A DNA stretch of 64,000 nucleotides from Candidatus Aenigmatarchaeota archaeon. Its GTDB lineage: Archaea > Thermoplasmatota > Thermoplasmata > Halarchaeoplasmatales > Halarchaeoplasmataceae. How positions within the stretch are numbered: position 1 is the first letter of the stretch; each line of letters starts with the position of its first letter. The notes under the pieces were generated by a model. The model was not told the DNA's origin. It worked only from the letters and a program-made list of their open reading frames with translations, and searched no databases. Positions 26,652-37,118 of the stretch are shown piece by piece. A program made the translations under genes and the position numbers. The stretch is taken from assembly GCA_046537845.1 (NCBI GenBank), contig JBKHKA010000003.1, positions 17,871 to 81,870 of the forward strand, in the 5' to 3' direction.

Positions 26652-28733
26652 TTAGTTTTCCATCCTCCGCTTCTTCCGATATATCGTTAATGCGAAGATG
26701 GTGGTCAAGATTAATAGCGCTAACGTGAATCCCGGCGTATCCTTTTCTTCTTCAAACACCGCCGTCACCGTTTTATCTTCGTCCATCGTGACCGTGATCT
26801 CTTCTTCTTCTCCGGAGGCGTCTCCTGTCCATTCTACGAATTCGTAGTCATCAGCTGGCGACGCAGTGAGGGTCACTTCGGTACCTTCTTCGTACTCGTC
26901 TTGATCCGGATCTATCTGCACTTCGCCTTCTCCGTCGACGTCCACCGCCAGTGTGTAATATTCCACTGCTTCCTGGAATACTGCTGTGATGTTCTTGTCT
27001 CCGTCCATCGTTATCGTGGTTTCAGCTTCTTCTGTGTCTTCTATCGTATCTACGTCTCCTGTCCATTCTACGAATTCCCAACCATCCTCTGCCACAGCTG
27101 TTAGTTTTACCTCTGTACCATCTTCGTATTCCTCCTGTTCTGGATCGATATCGACTTCCCCTTCACCTTCTATGTTTACCATGAGTTCATATGGATCCGG
27201 CGACCTCACCGTGACTTCAGAACTATTATCACCCAACTTTATCAAGTAGGTACCGTCCTCTTCGAACCGGTAACTTTCATCCACCGATACGTTCTCTCCT
27301 GTATCTAAACTCCAAGTCTTAAAGGTTTCATGATCGATGTAAAGACTGATGTTCCCTTCAATATCACCTACATTTTCTAGCTCAGCAGTTATATTGACTT
27401 CAAGCGGTTCGAACCCTTCTAACGGCTCGACTTCAAAATCTTCAACTCGGATGTCAAATTCGAGATCTACAGAAAAATCCACCGTGCCTCCGACCAAGTC
27501 TGCATTCACGTTTGAAGCTCTGACTTCGAAACTGTGTGGGTCTGATCGTGAGAACTCAAGATCATACTCAGTCTCTTCACCAACGTCTATCCACTCTCCA
27601 TCATCGAGTCTAATTTCATACTCTAACCGTTCTTCATGTCTGTACCTTCCAGTCCAGTTCACCGTCAATTCTGTATCCTCTATCACGGCTCCGTCTTCAG
27701 GATGCACTATATTGATGTAGGGTATGCTCGGTTCTACCATAGGGTATTCATCGATGAAACCGTGTCCTTCATCGTTCTCATAAGGCGTATCCCAATAACC
27801 GTTCGCCTTCTCCGCATCAGGATACTTCTCTTCGTAATCAGAGTAGTAGTTTCCCATCGACTCGGTTTCGTTGAAATAGTAATTTTCTCCCCTATTGATA
27901 GCTTGTTGATCGTTTTCGATGAAATTGTTGTTGTATATCTGGTTATCTCGTGAGGTCGTAGATCCTGGTTCTACAGCTATATTGAAACCGATATCATTTT
28001 CAAATATCGTATTGTTTTTCACTACATGGTTTACAGAAGCGTAAAGTTCTATTCCTCTTTCATGTCCTGACAGTCTGTTATCGAACAAATAATTATTGTA
28101 ACACCGATGAAAACTAATTCCGGAGTTTTCGTTATTATAAGCTGTGTTTCCCTCAAAAGTATGATTTGCCGAGTTTATTACAGCAATACCTATGCTATTT
28201 TCTTCCAAAATATTGCCTCTGATAGTATTATTAAAAGATCCACTAGGTCTAATTCCATACTCTTCGTTCGATGTTACTACATTATTTTCAACGATATTGT
28301 AGTCGGAAGCCCGGAGGAATATGCCCATCTCAACCCCCTCAACTATGTTACCTTTTATAGATCCATTATAGGTCAGTATCAGATGAACACCATATTGTCC
28401 TCCCTCTAATAGATTGTCTCTGATTATAAAATAATCATCAACTTCATCAATCAATATAGCCTCATTATCCCCTCCGTCTATCCTGTAGCCTTCAATTATA
28501 TAGGGATCTTGCTCTGTTCCACTGCCCGGCCAGCCATTTTCTTCTGACTGATTTGCAAAGTCTTCGTTTCCTTCTATATGGAGCGGTTCTCGTTCCTCGT
28601 ACTCATCATTAACCGCATGTTCAGTTCTATCTAGCTGGGCATTCATATTGCCATCTAAATCTCCTACAGTTGGGCCAATCAACAATAATATAGCGAGGAG
28701 CGACAGAGTTAAACTCATTTTCTTTTTTGTCAT
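26652..28733 (-). CDS. Surface protein: NosD/CASH right-handed beta-helix + Ig-like/CARDB + B-repeat-like stalk + PGF-CTERM
   Basis: Signal peptide; GSGTEQDPYII motif; N-rich beta-helix repeats; GNYYSDY; TPGF + TM + basic tail. Confidence 0.88.
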   Translation of the reverse strand: MTKKKMSLTLSLLAILLLIGPTVGDLDGNMNAQLDRTEHAVNDEYEEREPLHIEGNEDFANQSEENGWPGSGTEQDPYIIEGYRIDGGDNEAILIDEVDDYFIIRDNLLEGGQYGVHLILTYNGSIKGNIVEGVEMGIFLRASDYNIVENNVVTSNEEYGIRPSGSFNNTIRGNILEENSIGIAVINSANHTFEGNTAYNNENSGISFHRCYNNYLFDNRLSGHERGIELYASVNHVVKNNTIFENDIGFNIAVEPGSTTSRDNQIYNNNFIENDQQAINRGENYYFNETESMGNYYSDYEEKYPDAEKANGYWDTPYENDEGHGFIDEYPMVEPSIPYINIVHPEDGAVIEDTELTVNWTGRYRHEERLEYEIRLDDGEWIDVGEETEYDLEFSRSDPHSFEVRASNVNADLVGGTVDFSVDLEFDIRVEDFEVEPLEGFEPLEVNITAELENVGDIEGNISLYIDHETFKTWSLDTGENVSVDESYRFEEDGTYLIKLGDNSSEVTVRSPDPYELMVNIEGEGEVDIDPEQEEYEDGTEVKLTAVAEDGWEFVEWTGDVDTIEDTEEAETTITMDGDKNITAVFQEAVEYYTLAVDVDGEGEVQIDPDQDEYEEGTEVTLTASPADDYEFVEWTGDASGEEEEITVTMDEDKTVTAVFEEEKDTPGFTLALLILTTIFALTIYRKKRRMEN
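26758..27080. repeat. 323-bp perfect dispersed repeat, copy 2
   Basis: Identical to 502-824. Confidence 0.95.
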
Positions 28734-28856: not shown

Positions 28857-29888
28857 TTACTCCCCTTCCTTCTCTTCAGATTCATAACGTTCACCAGTTG
28901 GAATGGGATCAGTTCCACCGCCGCCTCCTCCGCCACCACCAGAGGAGCCGTCCTCTAACTCATCCGTAACATCGATATCTAAAGTCCATTCGGCCTCAGT
29001 ATTATCATAATCGATGTGACAGTTATAATCCTCTGCCCATCCGTCTACCTTGATGTTTAAAAGAGATTCTTCGGGATTACCACTATCACCTTCTTCAGGT
29101 ATCAATAAATCTATTTTTTCCCAGAAAGTCATGTATCTTCCATCATACGTATCTTCATCTTCTGTATATTCGACTTTTAGTCTTTCTGCTTGATGGTCAT
29201 GTTCCGCATACCACTCCGGCGGTTCATCATCTTCAGCCCAGGTCCTTATCATATCTATTGCAAGCTGTACCTCATCATGATCGATAGTTTTGCCAACTGC
29301 ATATTCATAGATATTTTCGAAATAAGCCTCTGCTTTGGAGTCATCATTGGGTGCTTGAGCATTTGTCCCGCCTATTTCAAATTCCCAAGCATTTCCGTCC
29401 ATTTGCCGGATTTCATGGCCCAATTTGGTAGTATATTGAGCGCTAAATCCACCGAGATCATAGCCATAGGAACCATTTGGTTGGTAAACTACAAAAGTGA
29501 CTAAAATAGGCCAAACTCGCTTTCCAGTTTGTCCAGCTGGCTCTACTGGTAAATTGGCTTGAACATACGGTCTTACGTGCCCTACTATATCTCTCTCCAG
29601 TCCATATGGCTCAGCATATAAAGGATTCTCATTAAACCTTATCTCTCCCCAGTGTTCACCATCATCAACAACGCCATCACTATTTCTAATACTCCATTTA
29701 GCACTATCTTCGTGCACTTGTGTATAGACAATGGTATGGGCATTCCAATAGTATTTTCCGTCTTCATTTATCCCGTCATACGCTTGAGCTCCTGGCACTA
29801 ACACTCCAATCACTAAACAAAGCACGGCTAGAATGCCAAAGCTCTGCAGGGCCCTCCATTTAATATTTTTCTTTTTTTTGTTTTTCAT
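28857..29888 (-). CDS. Secreted hypothetical protein with poly-Gly C-terminal linker
   Basis: Basic N-terminus and hydrophobic signal from MKNKKKK (ATG 29888); AQA cleavage site; SSGGGGGGGG near the C-terminus; visibly AT-richer than neighbours. Confidence 0.7.
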   Translation of the reverse strand: MKNKKKKNIKWRALQSFGILAVLCLVIGVLVPGAQAYDGINEDGKYYWNAHTIVYTQVHEDSAKWSIRNSDGVVDDGEHWGEIRFNENPLYAEPYGLERDIVGHVRPYVQANLPVEPAGQTGKRVWPILVTFVVYQPNGSYGYDLGGFSAQYTTKLGHEIRQMDGNAWEFEIGGTNAQAPNDDSKAEAYFENIYEYAVGKTIDHDEVQLAIDMIRTWAEDDEPPEWYAEHDHQAERLKVEYTEDEDTYDGRYMTFWEKIDLLIPEEGDSGNPEESLLNIKVDGWAEDYNCHIDYDNTEAEWTLDIDVTDELEDGSSGGGGGGGGGTDPIPTGERYESEEKEGE

Positions 29889-30086
29889 TGCGTCTAAACG
29901 TCTAAACACCTCGCAACACATAATGTCAAACATATATATATATCTCGGTCCATATATGTGTATTTAATCAATTTACTATATAAACGAACGGTAATACCCC
30001 TCAATTTTTTCATTTGCCCCGAAATTAATGGACACGGGGGAAAGATTATAGACGCGGTCGATATTTCAAAAACAGGTGTTTTACCC

Positions 30087-31104: not shown

Positions 31105-31746
31105 TTATGATCCCACAAACTTCACCGTGACCTCTTCCACATCCCAACGGGGTTCAAGTTTTTCCTTGATATCTTCTTTCACGGCAGAGGCGAACTGATG
31201 GTCTTCTTCTAGATCAACTTCGATCGATATATTCCCATCTTCAACCTCGATATCATGGATAAGCTCCGTCTGTATCACGTCAACGCCAGTCATAGGATTC
31301 ATCACGTGTTTCAATCGCTCTTTGACCACTTCGACAGTCGTCTCTTTTTGTTCCTCTCCAATACCGTGTCGCTCTTCATAATTCCGGATGGCTTCTCTCA
31401 AAGCGTCGACAGCTAGAACAGAACAGTGAGTCTTCAGATCAGGAAGACCTCCGAGCTCTTCAGCGGCTTCCTGCCAACTTATCTCTTTCGCTTCATCTAT
31501 AGTCTTTCCCTTCGCCATCTCAGTTATGATCGAACCAGTAGCTATGTTAGAAGCGCATCCATAGGATTTGAATTTTATGTCTGTTATCTTTTTCGTCTCG
31601 TCATCCACCTTGAGATAAAGCGAGACCATATCTCCACAAGCTGGACTGCCTTCTTTTGCGTAACCATCCGGATCTTCTATTTCTCCAACGTTCTTCGGGT
31701 TTTGAAAGTATTCTATAACCTTTTCGGTATATGGTGCATTCGCCAT
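31105..31746 (-). CDS. iscU: Fe-S scaffold IscU/NifU-N fused to a C-terminal DUF59 (SufT/MIP18-like) domain
   Basis: NPKNVG, GSPACGD, YGCAS, KTHC (three scaffold Cys); C-terminal 75 aa with a DUF59-like pattern. Confidence 0.9.
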   Translation of the reverse strand: MANAPYTEKVIEYFQNPKNVGEIEDPDGYAKEGSPACGDMVSLYLKVDDETKKITDIKFKSYGCASNIATGSIITEMAKGKTIDEAKEISWQEAAEELGGLPDLKTHCSVLAVDALREAIRNYEERHGIGEEQKETTVEVVKERLKHVMNPMTGVDVIQTELIHDIEVEDGNISIEVDLEEDHQFASAVKEDIKEKLEPRWDVEEVTVKFVGS

Positions 31747-31748
31747 TA

Positions 31749-32930
31749 TTATTCCTCCTCTTCTTCGCCCAAGGGGCTTATATCTCTCAATTTTTGTATG
31801 ATATCGGAGGTCGCTTCCACTACCTCCTCAACCTCATCTTCAGTATTGAATCTACCGAAGGTGAATCTGACCGAGCCGTGGGCTCTTTCATGGTCGCCTC
31901 CGATACCCATTATCACGTGGCTCGCCTCTAAAGATTTGCTGAAACATGCAGATCCTGTACTCACCGCGATACCTCGCATGTCTAAATGTAACGTGATAGA
32001 TTCTCCTTCCACGTAATGGAACGTGATGTTTGCATTTTGAGGTGTTCTATCCTCTTCGGGTCCGTTCAATATTATATCTGGAACCTCGTCTTTCATCCTT
32101 TCGATCAATCTATCCCTCATATCTTTTATACGCTCGTTTTCTTCTTCGCCGATGAGTTCCACGGCCTTAGCGAATCCTACCGCAGCGGGTATATTCTCAA
32201 CGCCCGCTCTCAGATTATCCTCCTGGAAACCGCCGTCCATCTGCTTTTTCAAAGGTGTGCCTTCTCTGATGTAAAGACCGCCTATGCCTCTCGGTCCGTG
32301 GATAGTGTGGGCGGAGAGCGTGATAAGATCTGCGGGAACCTCCTTCACGTCGATTGGAACTCTTCCAAAAGGGTGAGTGGCATCCATATGATACACAACA
32401 TCGTTCTCCTCGCAGATATCCGCTATCTTCTTTACATCCTGTAAAGTGCCTATCTCCTGATTTCCGTGTTGGATCGAAACCAGGATCGTCTCTTCATTTA
32501 TCGAGTCCTTCAGCTGGTCTAGGTCCACGAAACCTTTTCCGTCGACATCCAAGCGCGTCAGGTCAAAACCTTTCTTCTCTAGAGCTTTTGCGGTATTGAG
32601 AACGGGAAAGTCCTCGATATCAGATATGATGATGTGGTTACCTTGATCTTCCATTTTTTCAACTACGCCTTTCAGTGCAAGGTTGCTAGATTCGGTTGCG
32701 CAGGATGTGAAGATGAGTTCTTCTGAAGAAGCGCCGAGCTCTTCGGCTATCGTTTCTCGGGCGTCGTTCAAAGCTTCCTTGGCCTCCACGCCCATGCTGT
32801 ATGCGAAATCGGAAGTAGCTACTGCAAAGTTATCCAGCATGTAGGGCTTCATGGCCTCGAACACTTCCTCGTCCATCTTCGAACTCGCGGCGTTATCTAG
32901 ATAGATTATTTCATCCTTCATCTTTCTCAC
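31749..32930 (-). CDS. iscS: IscS/NifS-family protein lacking the PLP-binding lysine (probable non-catalytic desulfurase homolog)
   Basis: IscS fold motifs (YLDNAA, FTSCATES, NQEIGT, STGSAC, SVRF) but SAHT instead of SxHK, EDF instead of EH, DATH instead of DAxQ, RAGV instead of RxGT. Confidence 0.88.
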   Translation of the reverse strand: MRKMKDEIIYLDNAASSKMDEEVFEAMKPYMLDNFAVATSDFAYSMGVEAKEALNDARETIAEELGASSEELIFTSCATESSNLALKGVVEKMEDQGNHIIISDIEDFPVLNTAKALEKKGFDLTRLDVDGKGFVDLDQLKDSINEETILVSIQHGNQEIGTLQDVKKIADICEENDVVYHMDATHPFGRVPIDVKEVPADLITLSAHTIHGPRGIGGLYIREGTPLKKQMDGGFQEDNLRAGVENIPAAVGFAKAVELIGEEENERIKDMRDRLIERMKDEVPDIILNGPEEDRTPQNANITFHYVEGESITLHLDMRGIAVSTGSACFSKSLEASHVIMGIGGDHERAHGSVRFTFGRFNTEDEVEEVVEATSDIIQKLRDISPLGEEEEE

Positions 32931-32932
32931 CT

Positions 32933-33367
32933 CTATATGAACATGGTCACGTCGGATTCCTTAGCCTCTTTAACATAAGTTCCTACGGCGCAGTAATCCG
33001 TTATTACGTCGTCTCTTAAATCTTCTTTGTTTACCCCCATGATATCCATGGTCATGTCGCATGCCAATATCTTCCCTCCCAGCTCGTTAAAATCTTCTAT
33101 AAGATCGTCCATCTCCCTGACGTTGGACTTCTTCAGCTTTCTTTTCATCATCCACTTCCCCAACCCTAAAAAGTTCATCCTCGATAAAGGGCCTTTATCC
33201 AGTTCGTTCTTTTTCAACCGTTCCAGACCCCAAAATGTGAAGTACATGGAGACCTCCATGCCCATCGAAAGGGCTCCAGTCCCGATTATCAGCGCGCTGT
33301 AGACCTTATCGAACTCTCCGCTGTGCACGATTATAGTGGCTTTCGACGGGCCTTCATCTTCGACCAA
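32933..33367 (-). CDS. DsrE/DsrF/DrsH-like sulfur-carrier protein
   Basis: HSGEFDKVYSALII, MYFTFWGL, ACDMTMDIMG (conserved Cys), VGTYV. Confidence 0.88.
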   Translation of the reverse strand: MVEDEGPSKATIIVHSGEFDKVYSALIIGTGALSMGMEVSMYFTFWGLERLKKNELDKGPLSRMNFLGLGKWMMKRKLKKSNVREMDDLIEDFNELGGKILACDMTMDIMGVNKEDLRDDVITDYCAVGTYVKEAKESDVTMFI

Positions 33368-33368
33368 G

Positions 33369-33605
33369 TCATCCCTCCTCCGGTATCTTTATCCTTATGT
33401 TCCAATCGTCTCCTTCTTCGTCTACACCCAAAAGTTCTAAATCCAACTCCTCCACCGCCATGGGTATCTCTTTTTTGGATTCGGGATGGTTCCCTCTGAC
33501 CTCTATTATATCACCGGGGGAAGCTTTCCGTATAGCTTTCCTCGTCTCAACTAATGGAACTGGACACGTCTCTCCCATCACATCGAGTTTTTTTGTCTCC
33601 GACAT
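33369..33605 (-). CDS. tusA: TusA/SirA family sulfur carrier
   Basis: LDVMGETCPVP motif; ATG 33605 downstream of a GGAAGTGAG purine-rich stretch. Confidence 0.9.
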   Translation of the reverse strand: MSETKKLDVMGETCPVPLVETRKAIRKASPGDIIEVRGNHPESKKEIPMAVEELDLELLGVDEEGDDWNIRIKIPEEG

Positions 33606-33745
33606 CCTCTCACTTCCTTCTCCGAGGATACATGACATAATGCCGTAATAATCTTTTTGGAATGGTTCGAGCGTATAAGCATGATGAGACCAAAAAACTA
33701 TTTAGTTTCATGTGGTTACCAAATCTCACTAGAGGTGGAGTTTGG

Positions 33746-35104
33746 ATGGATGATAAGACATATAAGATATCTGCTGGGATCAAAGAAAAGATAGAGGATT
33801 TCATAGCAGGGTGGATGAGCGAAAACAAAGTACCGGGCATGAGCGTTGCGGTCGTTAAAGGAGACGAAAAGATATACGCTAGAGGTTTTGGAGCAAGAGA
33901 TCTTAAAGACAATATCCCCGCGACCCCGGACACTTTATACGGCATGGCTTCCGTGACCAAATCTTTCACCGCACTGGCGATACTCAAACTGGTGGAGAGA
34001 GGTGAAGTGGATTTGAAGGATAAAATAACCGATTACGTGCCGACGAAGTGGGACAACGACGTGACCATCTTCAACCTGTTGACGCACTCTTCCGGCATGC
34101 CTTCTTTAGGAGTGAGCGAAGCTTTGATAGACAGGTTGATAGAGATGGACGAGCGCGGCTTAGCTCTCAGCGATCTAGAAGATTTTTATACGCATCTCAA
34201 CGGCGCAAAAGATGAGATAGCTGCAAAACCCGGTGAGGAGTTCTTCTACTTCAATTCCGGTTACGCATTACTGGGGCAGATAATAGAAAAAGTGAGTGGA
34301 AAAGATTTCCCTGAATTCATCCGCAAAGAGATCTTCGAACCTCTAGAGATGGAAAGGTCGAGATTCGATTATGATGAAAACGAAGGAGACATCATGACGT
34401 CCTACTTCATGGGAGAAGAAAAACCGGAAAAGACACCTTATCCTTTACGAGAACTCGGCCATCCTGGCGGAGGCCTACTGAGTTCGGCCAAGGAACTCGC
34501 TAATTACCTGACGATGCACATGAACAAAGGAGAATTCAAAGGTGAACAGCTCATCGATCCTGAACTTTTGGATAAGGCACATCATCCACACATCACTAGA
34601 GAAGTGGGCGACTACGGCTTCGGCTGGGCCGTCAAGGATCTCGAAGGCGAAAAGTTCGTAGGCCATGGCGGTTCCATAGCCGTCTCCGGTGGCTTCATAG
34701 GCTTCGCAGGAGATATCGGTGTCGCTGTTTGCGCCAACACCATACCGGGCAGTTCCTACGAAGAAGTCGCAAAATGGATAATCAAGGAAGTGAAAGGTGA
34801 AGACGGAAACGAGTTGACCTACTTCAAAAGAAAGGAAAGGATGGACGAATTGACAGGCACCTACAGATCGTACAGAGGCATAAAAGAGATGGAGATCGAG
34901 AAAGAATGTGGATTGTTGAAGCTGACGGTAAAAGAGAGGCTGGAGAGTACGAAGGTCATACTGATACCCGAGAGTAAAAAGATAGACGATCACAAGTTCT
35001 ACTATCTAGACGGTAACGGGGAAAAGAACCCGGTTAGATTCGAAGTCGAAGACGACGGTATAGACCTCTTCATAGGTAGATGGCGTCTCCACAAGAAGAA
35101 CTGA
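33746..35104 (+). CDS. S12 serine hydrolase (beta-lactamase-like, Pab87-type peptidase)
   Basis: SVTK (SxxK), LLTHSSG, YFN (YxN), HGG motifs; C-terminal beta domain; RBS GAGGTGG before ATG 33746. Confidence 0.88.
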
Positions 35105-35976: not shown

Positions 35977-37118
35977 ATGGATTTTGAAAAGGCGCTCAGT
36001 TTCGACGACATAATGATGGTCCCTAGCAATACCGACCTTAAAGGACGATATTGAGACTTCAAGCCATATAACCGAAAACATAGAGTTACAAGTTCCTATT
36101 TTGAGCTCTCCCATGGATAAAGTTACGGGCAGCGAGATGAGCATCGTGATGGCGAGAGAAGGCGCACTCGGCGTCATCCACCGTAACCTAGATGTGAAAG
36201 GACATATCGATATGGTCAAACGTTCTGAAAAATGGATAATCCGAGAACTCTACACGGTAACTCCGAATATCAAAGTCCCTCTGCTGGATGAAGAGAACAG
36301 ACTTCAGGGCCTGATCACCGTCAGAGATATAGAGAAAAAGAAACAGCATCCGGAAGCTACGTTAGATGAGAACGGTCAGCTGATGGTGGCCGCCGCTGTA
36401 GGACCGGGGGGATCCGGAAGGATAGAACGTTTGGTCGACGCAGGGATAGACCTGATAGTCGTAGATACCGCTCACGGAAACCCCAAAGATGTGATAGATG
36501 CTACGGAAGAGATAAACGGAAGTTTCGACGTTGATATCATGGCTGGCAATATAGCGTCACAAGAAGGCGCTAGAGCATTGATAAAAGCCGGTGCGGGTTC
36601 CCTTCGGGTCGGGATAATACCGGGATCGATCTGCACCACGAGGATCGTTTCGGGTATAGGCGTACCTCAGATAACGGCGATAATGAACGTTTTTAAAGAA
36701 GCTAGAGATGAAGACGTAAGCAGCATCGCCGACGGAGGTATAATATACAGGGGCGACGCCGCCAAGGCGTTAGCTTGTGGAGCCGGCGCTATAATTATCG
36801 GTAACATGCTGGCAGGTACGGAAGAAGCCCCGGGCAGGTTCGTCTTCCGAGGTGGAAGAAAGTATAAGGAATATAGAGAGATGGCCTCTATCTCCGCATT
36901 AGAGAAGCGTGAAAAGAATAGATACGATCAGGATTTCGAAAGACGTGAAGAATATGTTCCAGAAGTGGTTGAAGGATTAGTGCCCTACAAGGATAGAAGA
37001 GATGCGAGACGCTGAGATCTACGAGATAAGCGAGGGTGGCAAACATGAAAGCCATCCTCACAACGTGGAGATAACCGAGGACACCCCTAACTATCACTGG
37101 AAAGGAGAAAGATACTGA
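35977..37118 (+). pseudogene. guaB: IMP dehydrogenase pseudogene
   Basis: N-terminus MDFEKALSFDDIMMVP (ATG 35977) is out of frame with the body (SSPMDKVT, DTAHG, PGSICTT). The CBS region is largely deleted. The C-terminus ESHPHNVEITEDTPNY lies in another frame after a deletion near 36995. Conserved glycines are substituted (GIIPG, EMAS, PEVVEG). Confidence 0.85.

Follow-up and report, generated by a model that had tools for sequence, protein, structure and literature searches.

A conserved tusA–dsrE2–iscS–iscU cassette encoding an IscS homologue that lacks the catalytic lysine in archaea and bacteria

The DNA considered here, referred to throughout as the window, is a stretch of 64,000 nucleotides from Candidatus Aenigmatarchaeota archaeon (assembly GCA_046537845.1, contig JBKHKA010000003.1, positions 17,871 to 81,870 of the forward strand), which the GTDB lineage places in the Halarchaeoplasmatales of the Thermoplasmatota. 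On its reverse strand, at 31105–33605, lie four genes that encode a TusA-family protein, a DsrE2-like protein, a homologue of the cysteine desulfurase IscS that lacks the lysine for pyridoxal phosphate (PLP) and is termed IscS* below, and an IscU scaffold fused to a DUF59 domain (IscU::DUF59). An earlier note on this DNA had read the genes as an operon for desulfurase-independent assembly of iron–sulfur (Fe-S) clusters. The cassette is a carrier-equipped, PLP-less branch of the IscS–IscU lineage that is real, widespread and uncharacterised, and from its composition and history we infer how it may be supplied with sulfur.

The cassette and the IscS* active site

The genes are read in the order tusA, dsrE2, iscS*, iscU. 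The first, tusA (33369–33605, − strand), encodes a 78-residue sulfur carrier of the TusA family (PF01206, 74.9 bits against a Pfam cut-off of 28.6). Its open reading frame (ORF) spans 33369–33638, and an in-frame upstream ATG at 33638 would yield 89 residues; the most likely start is the ATG at 33605, which has GAGAGG ahead of it. The dsrE2-like gene (32933–33367, −) begins with TTG and encodes a 144-residue protein of the DrsE_2 family (PF13686, 128.4 bits, cut-off 25), with relatives in the PDB that include 2qs7 and 3pnx ('putative sulfurtransferase DsrE'). The product of iscS* (31749–32930, −) is a class-V (IscS/NifS-type) homologue (Aminotran_5, PF00266, 237.5 bits) of 393 residues if translated from the GTG at 32930, or of 390 residues from the ATG at 32921. 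The last ORF (31105–31746, −) is a fusion, in which residues 1–130 (31357–31746) form the IscU scaffold domain (NifU_N, PF01592, 151.8 bits over residues 6–127) and residues 131–213, followed by the stop codon (31105–31356), comprise a linker and the DUF59 (FeS_assembly_P) domain (PF01883, 44.5 bits over residues 140–208, cut-off 23.5). The gaps are 1 nt between tusA and dsrE2 (TGA-C-TTG), 2 nt between dsrE2 and iscS* (TAG-AG-GTG; 11 nt with the ATG at 32921 as start codon) and 2 nt between iscS* and iscU (TAA-TA-ATG), and both the ORFs and the bases bear out the co-oriented, tightly spaced arrangement reported in the earlier note. The 56 bp at 33606–33661 that separate tusA from a divergent Pab87-type gene are likely to hold the promoter of the cassette, a candidate assignment based on ORF positions.

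In the TusA protein, the cysteine of the CPxP motif is Cys14 (codon 33564–33566, motif TCPVP), and the DsrE2-like protein carries Cys103 (codon 33059–33061). Both proteins fall short of the NCBIfam equivalog models: TusA lies under the cut-offs for TusA and YedF, its best match being the selenium-metabolism protein YedF (40.8 bits against 79), and the DsrE2-like protein scores 71.2 bits against the cut-off of 210 for DsrE2 (NF047629). The IscU domain contains Cys37, Asp39 (within GDM), Cys64, His107 and Cys108, which answer to the cluster ligands Cys37, Asp39, Cys63, His105 and Cys106 of E. coli IscU, and the position of the chaperone-binding motif LPPVK reads LPDLK in the window copy and LPPIK in copies from Methanosarcina. 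The DUF59 family is linked to Fe-S protein maturation, and the T-x-x-C-P motif of SufT/DUF59 proteins carries a conserved cysteine. The fused domain resembles SufT and stand-alone DUF59 proteins by its PF01883 match and differs from them in its fusion to IscU and in having, in the window copy, no cysteine; His183 and His147 are present. A stand-alone DUF59 protein of the same genome reads TSPFCP where the fused domain reads EEDHQF, the BLAST alignment of the two ending just short of the motif.

IscS* covers profile positions 1–370 of the 371 in PF00266 and matches E. coli IscS (1p3w) with an E-value of 5e-89, and it scores below every NCBIfam desulfurase cut-off (442 of 531 bits for FeS_nifS, 379 of 643 for IscS TIGR02006 and 393 of 548 for PRK14012). 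In the E. coli structure, PLP is contacted by a stacking His, by a Gln at O3′ and by a Thr of the partner subunit. In IscS*, the position of the Schiff-base Lys is occupied by Thr209 (codon ACT, 32304–32306, within SAHT), that of the stacking His by Asp107 (codon GAC, 32610–32612, within EDF), that of the Gln by His186 (32373–32375, within DATH at 32373–32384) and that of Thr243 by Val244 (32199–32201, within RAGV at 32199–32210). The canonical desulfurase 9wep has EH, DAVQ, SAHK and RAGT at the same places. Archaeoglobus fulgidus IscS2 (4eb5), the top match in the PDB (E 6e-99 over 379 residues), has EH, DATA, SSND and RSGS. The loop cysteine of IscS* is retained as Cys329 of STGSAC (codon TGT, 31944–31946). 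The earlier note had named all four substitutions (Lys to Thr, His to Asp, Gln to His and Thr to Val) and had described the loop Cys and the whole ORF as intact; each of its codons was confirmed base for base.

Conservation, spread and loss of the lysine

The same signature runs through a subfamily of proteins. The best 120 homologues of IscS* in a collection of 5.8 billion proteins (66–100% identity) come from Thermoplasmatota, MSBL1, Heimdallarchaeota, Korarchaeota, Methanosarcina, Halanaerobiales and other bacteria, and none of the 120 keeps the Lys. When the window protein is included, the Lys position holds Thr in 120 of the 121 sequences and Pro in one, the stacking-His position Asp in 118 and Asn in three, the Gln position His in 120 and Tyr in one, and the Thr243 position Val in 76, Leu in 30 and Ile in 15; the loop Cys is kept in all 121. 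Among 129 Lys-bearing representatives of the wider family, the stacking His is found in 127, the Gln in 124, the Lys in 129, the Thr in 125 and the loop Cys in 128.

A former iscS that has lost its catalytic Lys might be a pseudogene in decay or might reflect a sequencing error, and that loss is the sole support for this explanation, to which we attach a negligible probability. The ORF is intact, the loss is common to the whole sample of homologues, and the subfamily maintains 65–70% identity between archaea and bacteria. The ratio of nonsynonymous to synonymous substitution rates (dN/dS), estimated against six close loci, is far below 1 (0.014–0.136) in the 13 of 24 gene-by-locus comparisons in which dS could be estimated, synonymous sites being saturated in the remaining 11; the estimable values for iscS* are 0.035–0.054. 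All four genes are thus under purifying selection. Contigs from two more DNA runs cover the whole cassette and have identical bases at 32304–32306, the four DNA runs that contain the cassette all belonging to one study and one of them perhaps being the source sample. These runs are labelled hypersaline lake and microbial mat, and no RNA run is listed among the runs containing the cassette. Decay or error was rejected on these grounds: because the signature is fixed, dN/dS is low and other runs agree, the IscS* state is a selected one, neither erroneous nor dying.

The four-gene set is a conserved unit. Two outcomes that the earlier note had named as refuting its reading, a Lys kept in close homologues and a lack of conserved synteny, were therefore not observed. 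At least 579 stretches encode an IscS* relative among 185,579 species genomes (one genome per species), which were scanned with the patterns AVSTGSACF and [KR]SLEASHVI, and the best 80 of these loci were kept. All four genes are present in 66 of the 80, arranged as tusA–dsrE2–iscS*–iscU in 64 and as iscS*–iscU–tusA–dsrE2 in two, and contig ends cut eight of the 14 incomplete loci. IscU comes next after IscS* in 74 of the 80 loci, and IscU and DUF59 form one ORF in 74. The hosts belong to the Thermoplasmatota, Hadarchaeota, Heimdallarchaeota, Methanosarcinales, Halanaerobiales, Chloroflexota and Syntrophaceae and include a Methanobacteriaceae genome; all are from groups known as anaerobes.

The residues of interest are conserved along with the genes. 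All 74 aligned TusA sequences (the window copy and its 73 orthologues) have the CPxP Cys and a His; Cys103 of the DsrE2-like protein is kept in 72 of 73, a second cysteine, Cys126, being found in just 39 of 73. In the scaffold, Cys37, Cys64, His107 and Cys108 each occur in at least 75 of 77 sequences, and in DUF59 His183 occurs in 75 and His147 in 70 of 77. No further neighbour is conserved across lineages in the 80 loci, and the conserved neighbours include no TusE/DsrC, MnmA or other acceptor. Two kinds of candidate partner were rejected as confined to single lineages, namely a HIT-family gene in 23 apparently Methanosarcina-type loci (e.g. L048) and small membrane proteins in 13–22 loci.

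In a tree of 157 sequences, built after two fragments were dropped, the IscS* subfamily forms one clade (support 0.994). A library of representatives at 50% identity reduces it to two, after which the scores fall from 538 to 419, 413 and 388 bits. The Lys is present in 129 of 150 such representatives and absent from 21, which by parsimony amounts to eight changes. When metagenomes were scanned with P0125, the sister representative in which Leu replaces the Lys, 80 loci were obtained; those aligned over at least 330 residues went into a tree of 96 tips, together with the window sequence, 10 representatives and 11 loci of the subfamily. A single clade of 31 tips (support 0.95) takes in every IscS that adjoins an IscU::DUF59. 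In both members of the clade's basal pair the PLP set is complete (His, Gln, His, Lys, Thr, Cys), and one of them, the Lys-bearing IscS of locus L106, has IscU::DUF59, TusA and DsrE2 after it. Elsewhere in the clade the Lys persists in sequences that have Leu, Tyr or Met in place of the Gln. The Lys is gone at four places, in the Asp-His-His-Thr group of the window, in L101–L103 (Leu), in L110 (Leu) and in P0125, L096 and L097 (Leu), and the loop Cys is never lost. Branching between the groups is weak (0.49–0.61), so the count of at least four losses leans on their distinct residue patterns too; because many metagenome contigs are short, carriers missing from these loci mean little. Judged from this tree, the link of TusA, DsrE2 and DUF59 predates the loss of the Lys, and the Lys is dispensable in the IscU::DUF59-linked system. 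As Lys-bearing relatives already carry TusA and DsrE2, the carriers were not recruited to make up for a dead enzyme.

The metagenome loci also contain another Lys-less IscS group, with the pattern His-Ala-Asp-Gln-Thr/Ala-Cys, in which the Lys is replaced by Gln and His205 by Asp and IscU follows iscS (L132, L134, L136, L138–L141, L143, L144, L152, L155 and L161). In L134, L136 and L139 a weak TusA-like ORF (27–30% identity) also follows.

Known assembly systems and the host genomes

The core of the cassette has been described before. Methanosarcina loci encode an IscS* of 66–68% identity with SAHT and STGSACFS, followed by IscU with LPPIK and DUF59, and tusA and dsrE2 lie ahead; by these matches, the cassette is the counterpart of M. 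acetivorans IscS1 (MA0808) and IscU1 (MA0807; 24.2 kDa), known as 'isc1'. Deere et al. 2020 (PMC7585200) describe IscS1 as lacking the PLP residues, including the essential Lys, and suggest that it may act like the IscS of A. fulgidus; no mention of TusA or DsrE was found in the text of that paper. A 2026 review (PMC13066941) counts isc1 among three copies of MIS, a system that it presents as having no carrier protein. Methanosarcina has two canonical IscSU pairs and two SufBC pairs besides isc1, whereas no other scaffold was found in the genus of the window.

The IscS–IscU pair of A. fulgidus (PDB 4eb5, 4eb7 and 4hvk) resembles that of the cassette in that the Lys is missing, the loop Cys is kept and IscU is paired with IscS. 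Its IscS is reported to have no desulfurase activity and to contribute one of the cysteines that ligate the [2Fe-2S] cluster of IscU (PMC7585200; bioRxiv 10.1101/2024.03.20.586028), and by analogy it offers a precedent for a Lys-less IscS that partners IscU. Unlike IscS*, it has Asp at the Lys position, retains the stacking His, and has Ala for the Gln and Asn for His205. Since the representative with the A. fulgidus signature (P0128) sits outside the IscU::DUF59-linked clade, the A. fulgidus-type loss of the Lys is independent.

The cassette shares with MIS (MisS–MisU) and core ISC the succession of an IscS-type protein and an IscU-type scaffold, the Cys/Asp/Cys/His/Cys ligands of that scaffold, and a cluster without chaperones, ferredoxin or IscA. 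What sets it apart from MIS is the loss of the desulfurase site, the constant company of two sulfur carriers and the DUF59 domain on the scaffold; MIS is presented as a two-component system without carriers (PMC13066941), whereas TusA and DsrE2 accompany the cassette in 66 of the 72 loci with sufficient flank. The DsrE3–TusA and sHdr-associated cascades of sulfur oxidisers likewise combine TusA with a DsrE-family carrier and conserved Cys (PMC11094781) but feed sHdr and Dsr sulfur oxidation, while the cassette is tied to an Fe-S scaffold. A TusA/TusD pair is also reported in M. maripaludis under selenium depletion (PMC11097638). The IscS–TusA–TusBCD relay of E. coli draws on the same three families as the cassette (IscS, TusA with a CPxP Cys, and a DsrE-family protein), but its IscS is a PLP-active donor and the direction proposed for the cassette is the reverse. 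The relay ends in tRNA 2-thiolation through TusE and MnmA, neither of which is linked to the cassette.

The view in the earlier note that the route seems distinct from canonical ISC, SUF and NIF does not hold, as the cassette is a derived branch of IscS–IscU (MIS/ISC) and the loss of the Lys in IscS1 had been published (PMC7585200). No publication was found that joins TusA, DsrE2 and IscU or describes the cassette, and an earlier mention of the carriers may exist. The core IscS1/IscU1 pair is known from print; as far as our searches reach, the composition, spread, evolutionary trend and sole-scaffold status of the cassette are new.

This last property emerges from the host genomes. The genome that contains the window (1.70 Mb, 36 contigs) has a single NifU_N match, that of the cassette, so no SufU or second NifU_N was found in it; its one TusA and one DrsE_2 gene are both in the cassette. 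SufE was not found in this genome, and rhodanese gave a marginal match only. Across the genus, 18 genomes (this one among them; 10 are at least 92% complete) yielded no SufB/D core in a search that gave a match in 14 of 14 control genomes. Of 17 genus relatives, 16 encode an IscS* that is at least 74% identical and 13 encode the fused IscU, the misses of the latter falling at contig ends or in incomplete genomes. SufB/D was found in 24 of 37 other host genomes and was not found in nine of nine Thermoplasmata, in two of two Heimdallarchaeota or in G069 and G077. The cassette appears to be the only recognisable system for de novo scaffolding in these Thermoplasmata and Heimdallarchaeota lineages, an argument for its being functional, and probably essential, in them.

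Three relatives of the same family (G019, G020 and G023) carry, in addition to the IscS* cassette, a second IscS of 43–46% identity; that of G020 has three in-frame stops, as if the canonical pair were being lost.

The proposed sulfur route and its alternatives

We give slightly better than an even chance to the cassette being a self-contained Fe-S assembly module of the IscS–IscU (minimal ISC/MIS) lineage, in which IscS* is free of PLP and TusA and DsrE2 feed in the sulfur. IscU::DUF59 would serve as the scaffold. IscS*, being without the residues that hold and use PLP, would not desulfurate cysteine; with the IscS fold, the IscU-facing surface and the mobile-loop Cys329 kept, it would be the docking partner of the scaffold. 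TusA (Cys14) and the DsrE2-like protein (Cys103) would act as persulfide carriers that feed Cys329, which would accept sulfane sulfur, hand it on and perhaps ligate the nascent cluster. The sulfur might originate as sulfide, polysulfide or thiosulfate from a sulfidic anoxic habitat, or as cysteine persulfide made by a SufS-like enzyme. A PLP-free adaptor with TusA and DsrE2 as its sulfur carriers is the best reading and is partly supported; the absence of PLP and the direction of sulfur flow are the parts that we infer. A model of TusA on IscS* lends weak support, with a score of 0.43 against 0.00 for the best of three controls. Of 80 solved complexes, 58 reached the docking mark, as did two of 110 mismatched pairs; just seven of those 80 reached it with a score of 0.60 or lower, together with both of the passing mismatches. 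At least 87% of contacts are common to the model runs, and the predicted local distance difference test (pLDDT) of the partner is at least 87. Since the structure of the E. coli IscS–TusA complex has been solved, this pass may reflect memory and likeness more than binding.

A number of observations weigh against the adaptor and its carriers. One or both carriers are absent from six of the 72 loci whose flanks are long enough: L017 and L019 are without DsrE2, L032 has only a DsrE-like gene of 33% identity, L029 (Thermotogae) has iscS* and iscU without carriers, and L027 and L040 have IscS* alone. The genome itself is just 80.6% complete. M. acetivorans IscS1 expressed alone is reported to form inclusion bodies (PMC7585200), and A. 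fulgidus iscS2U2 is reported not to complement E. coli mutants, even with sulfide (bioRxiv 10.1101/2024.03.20.586028). To these are added the state of the pocket, the sulfur path of E. coli and the further desulfurases of the hosts, each of which bears on a different alternative.

The residues that bind the PLP phosphate and ring nitrogen in canonical enzymes are near-invariant in IscS* (Thr79 in 118 of 121 sequences, Asn157 in 121, Asp183 in 121, Ser206 in 108 and His208 in 121), which leaves room for a non-covalent cofactor. IscS* might still be an enzyme, its pocket (Asp107, His186, His208, Thr209) holding a non-covalent PLP-like ligand or a metal for another sulfur-mobilising reaction, and besides the retained residues this idea has in its favour that the four substitutions are fixed rather than random, and that the pocket looks selected when set beside the differing, variable pockets of other Lys-less lineages. 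We nevertheless think it very unlikely. The sister lineages in which the Lys became Leu have quite different neighbouring residues and the same gene partners, as though the pocket were simply dispensable, and the A. fulgidus protein is described as being without cysteine desulfurase activity (PMC7585200; bioRxiv 10.1101/2024.03.20.586028).

The carriers could also be acceptors rather than donors, because Lys-bearing members of the clade already carry TusA and DsrE2, L106 among them; in E. coli, sulfur passes from IscS to TusA and on to the DsrE-like TusBCD (PMC11097638). IscS* would then be just a structural partner or cluster ligand of IscU, as has been proposed for A. fulgidus, free sulfide would act directly on the scaffold, and TusA and DsrE2 would export sulfur in the E. 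coli direction, towards tRNA thiolation, the molybdenum cofactor or selenium handling. The sub-threshold YedF match of the tusA gene fits such a role, and the SMS system provides a documented case of Fe-S assembly from sulfide (PMC13066941). We regard this export as improbable, since a PLP-less IscS* would be left without means to generate a persulfide, and since the conserved surroundings of the cassette include no downstream acceptor such as TusE/DsrC or MnmA. The repeated loss of the Lys, together with the strict retention of Cys329 and of the TusA and DsrE2 cysteines, is easier to understand if the carriers are an inlet to the adaptor.

Cysteine may still be the ultimate source of the sulfur, as a SufS-like gene and other class-V enzymes persist in the hosts. 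The check for a canonical IscS or SufS elsewhere in the genome, raised in the earlier note, brought to light a 398-residue SufS/CsdA-like class II enzyme with SVHK and an RGGMQC loop on another contig, C22 (L001:1471–2667, −). It scores 394 bits against TIGR01979, under the subfamily cut-off of 475, its neighbours in L001 (a helix–turn–helix protein, a fumarase subunit and MCM) leave it unlinked to the cassette, and orthologues of at least 77% identity are found in 16 of 17 genus relatives. Among the host genomes, 35 of 37 hold at least one further class-V enzyme at an E-value of 1e-30 or better. The label 'desulfurase-independent' was consequently not borne out. A hybrid route can be envisaged in which the SufS/CsdA-like enzyme makes a persulfide from cysteine and TusA and/or DsrE2 replace SufE or SufU and deliver it to IscS* and IscU::DUF59, so that the cassette would be desulfurase-dependent, but in trans. 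With SufE, SufU, a second NifU_N and SufB/D not found, the SufS-like enzyme has no usual acceptor, which suits this proposal. Its weaknesses are that the gene is unlinked, that SufS-like enzymes are also used in thio-cofactor and selenium metabolism, and that the type of partner desulfurase is not conserved, being class I in Methanosarcina, where IscS2 and IscS3 are described (PMC7585200), as against class II in the genus of the window. In G051 and G076, moreover, IscS* is the sole class-V enzyme at 1e-30, though these genomes may be incomplete. On balance the hybrid route is a possibility to be taken seriously, if a minority one.

As observations in their own right, the SufS/CsdA-like enzyme of the genus is an orphan desulfurase, no SufE, SufU or SufB/D having been found to go with it, and G051 and G076 (loci L028 and L087), the only two of the 37 hosts in their position, are candidate hosts without a canonical desulfurase.

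Because the extra desulfurase varies in type among hosts and is unlinked to the cassette, an inorganic source of sulfur is equally open. A stronger form of the adaptor reading, which we hold as tentatively as the hybrid route, has the whole Fe-S pathway run on sulfane or sulfide sulfur instead of cysteine, with DsrE2 and TusA loading the Cys of a PLP-free IscS whose pocket has been reused; Asp107, His186, His208 and Thr209 might, for instance, hold Fe(II) or a persulfide for IscU. If this were true, the cassette would be the housekeeping system, and the only de novo one, by which halophilic Thermoplasmatota and some Heimdallarchaeota make their Fe-S clusters, and would mark the end point of a trend in which TusA-linked IscS enzymes repeatedly gave up PLP chemistry.

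The cassette is flanked by the Pab87-type gene, which encodes a beta-lactamase fold (33662–35104, +), and ThiD at one end and by a 2-hydroxyacid dehydrogenase at the other, and the Pfam families of these neighbours give no apparent link to the cassette. Elsewhere in the window, an ORF for IMP dehydrogenase (36101–37015, +; 304 residues) covers profile positions 38–296 of 345 with both ends missing, and the gene may be frameshifted or truncated. Two very acidic and apparently secreted proteins are encoded on the reverse strand, one of 693 residues (26652–28733), in which a hydrophobic anchor at the C terminus accompanies NosD/beta-helix repeats and two InlB B-repeat domains, and one of 358 residues (28857–29933) with no Pfam match.

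To our knowledge, the supply of sulfur to the Fe-S clusters of anaerobic archaea and bacteria without a cysteine desulfurase has so far been addressed only for the SufBC-type SMS. The cassette is a candidate for a second such route, based on IscU, with fixed non-PLP residues in IscS and with two persulfide carriers as constant partners, which spans archaea and bacteria at 65–70% identity and may be essential where it appears to be the only scaffold system. The idea is directly testable, because the genetically tractable M. acetivorans carries a matching cluster. Within one gene context, the IscU::DUF59-linked clade runs from PLP-competent to PLP-less IscS, and so offers a natural experiment in the passage from enzyme to adaptor.

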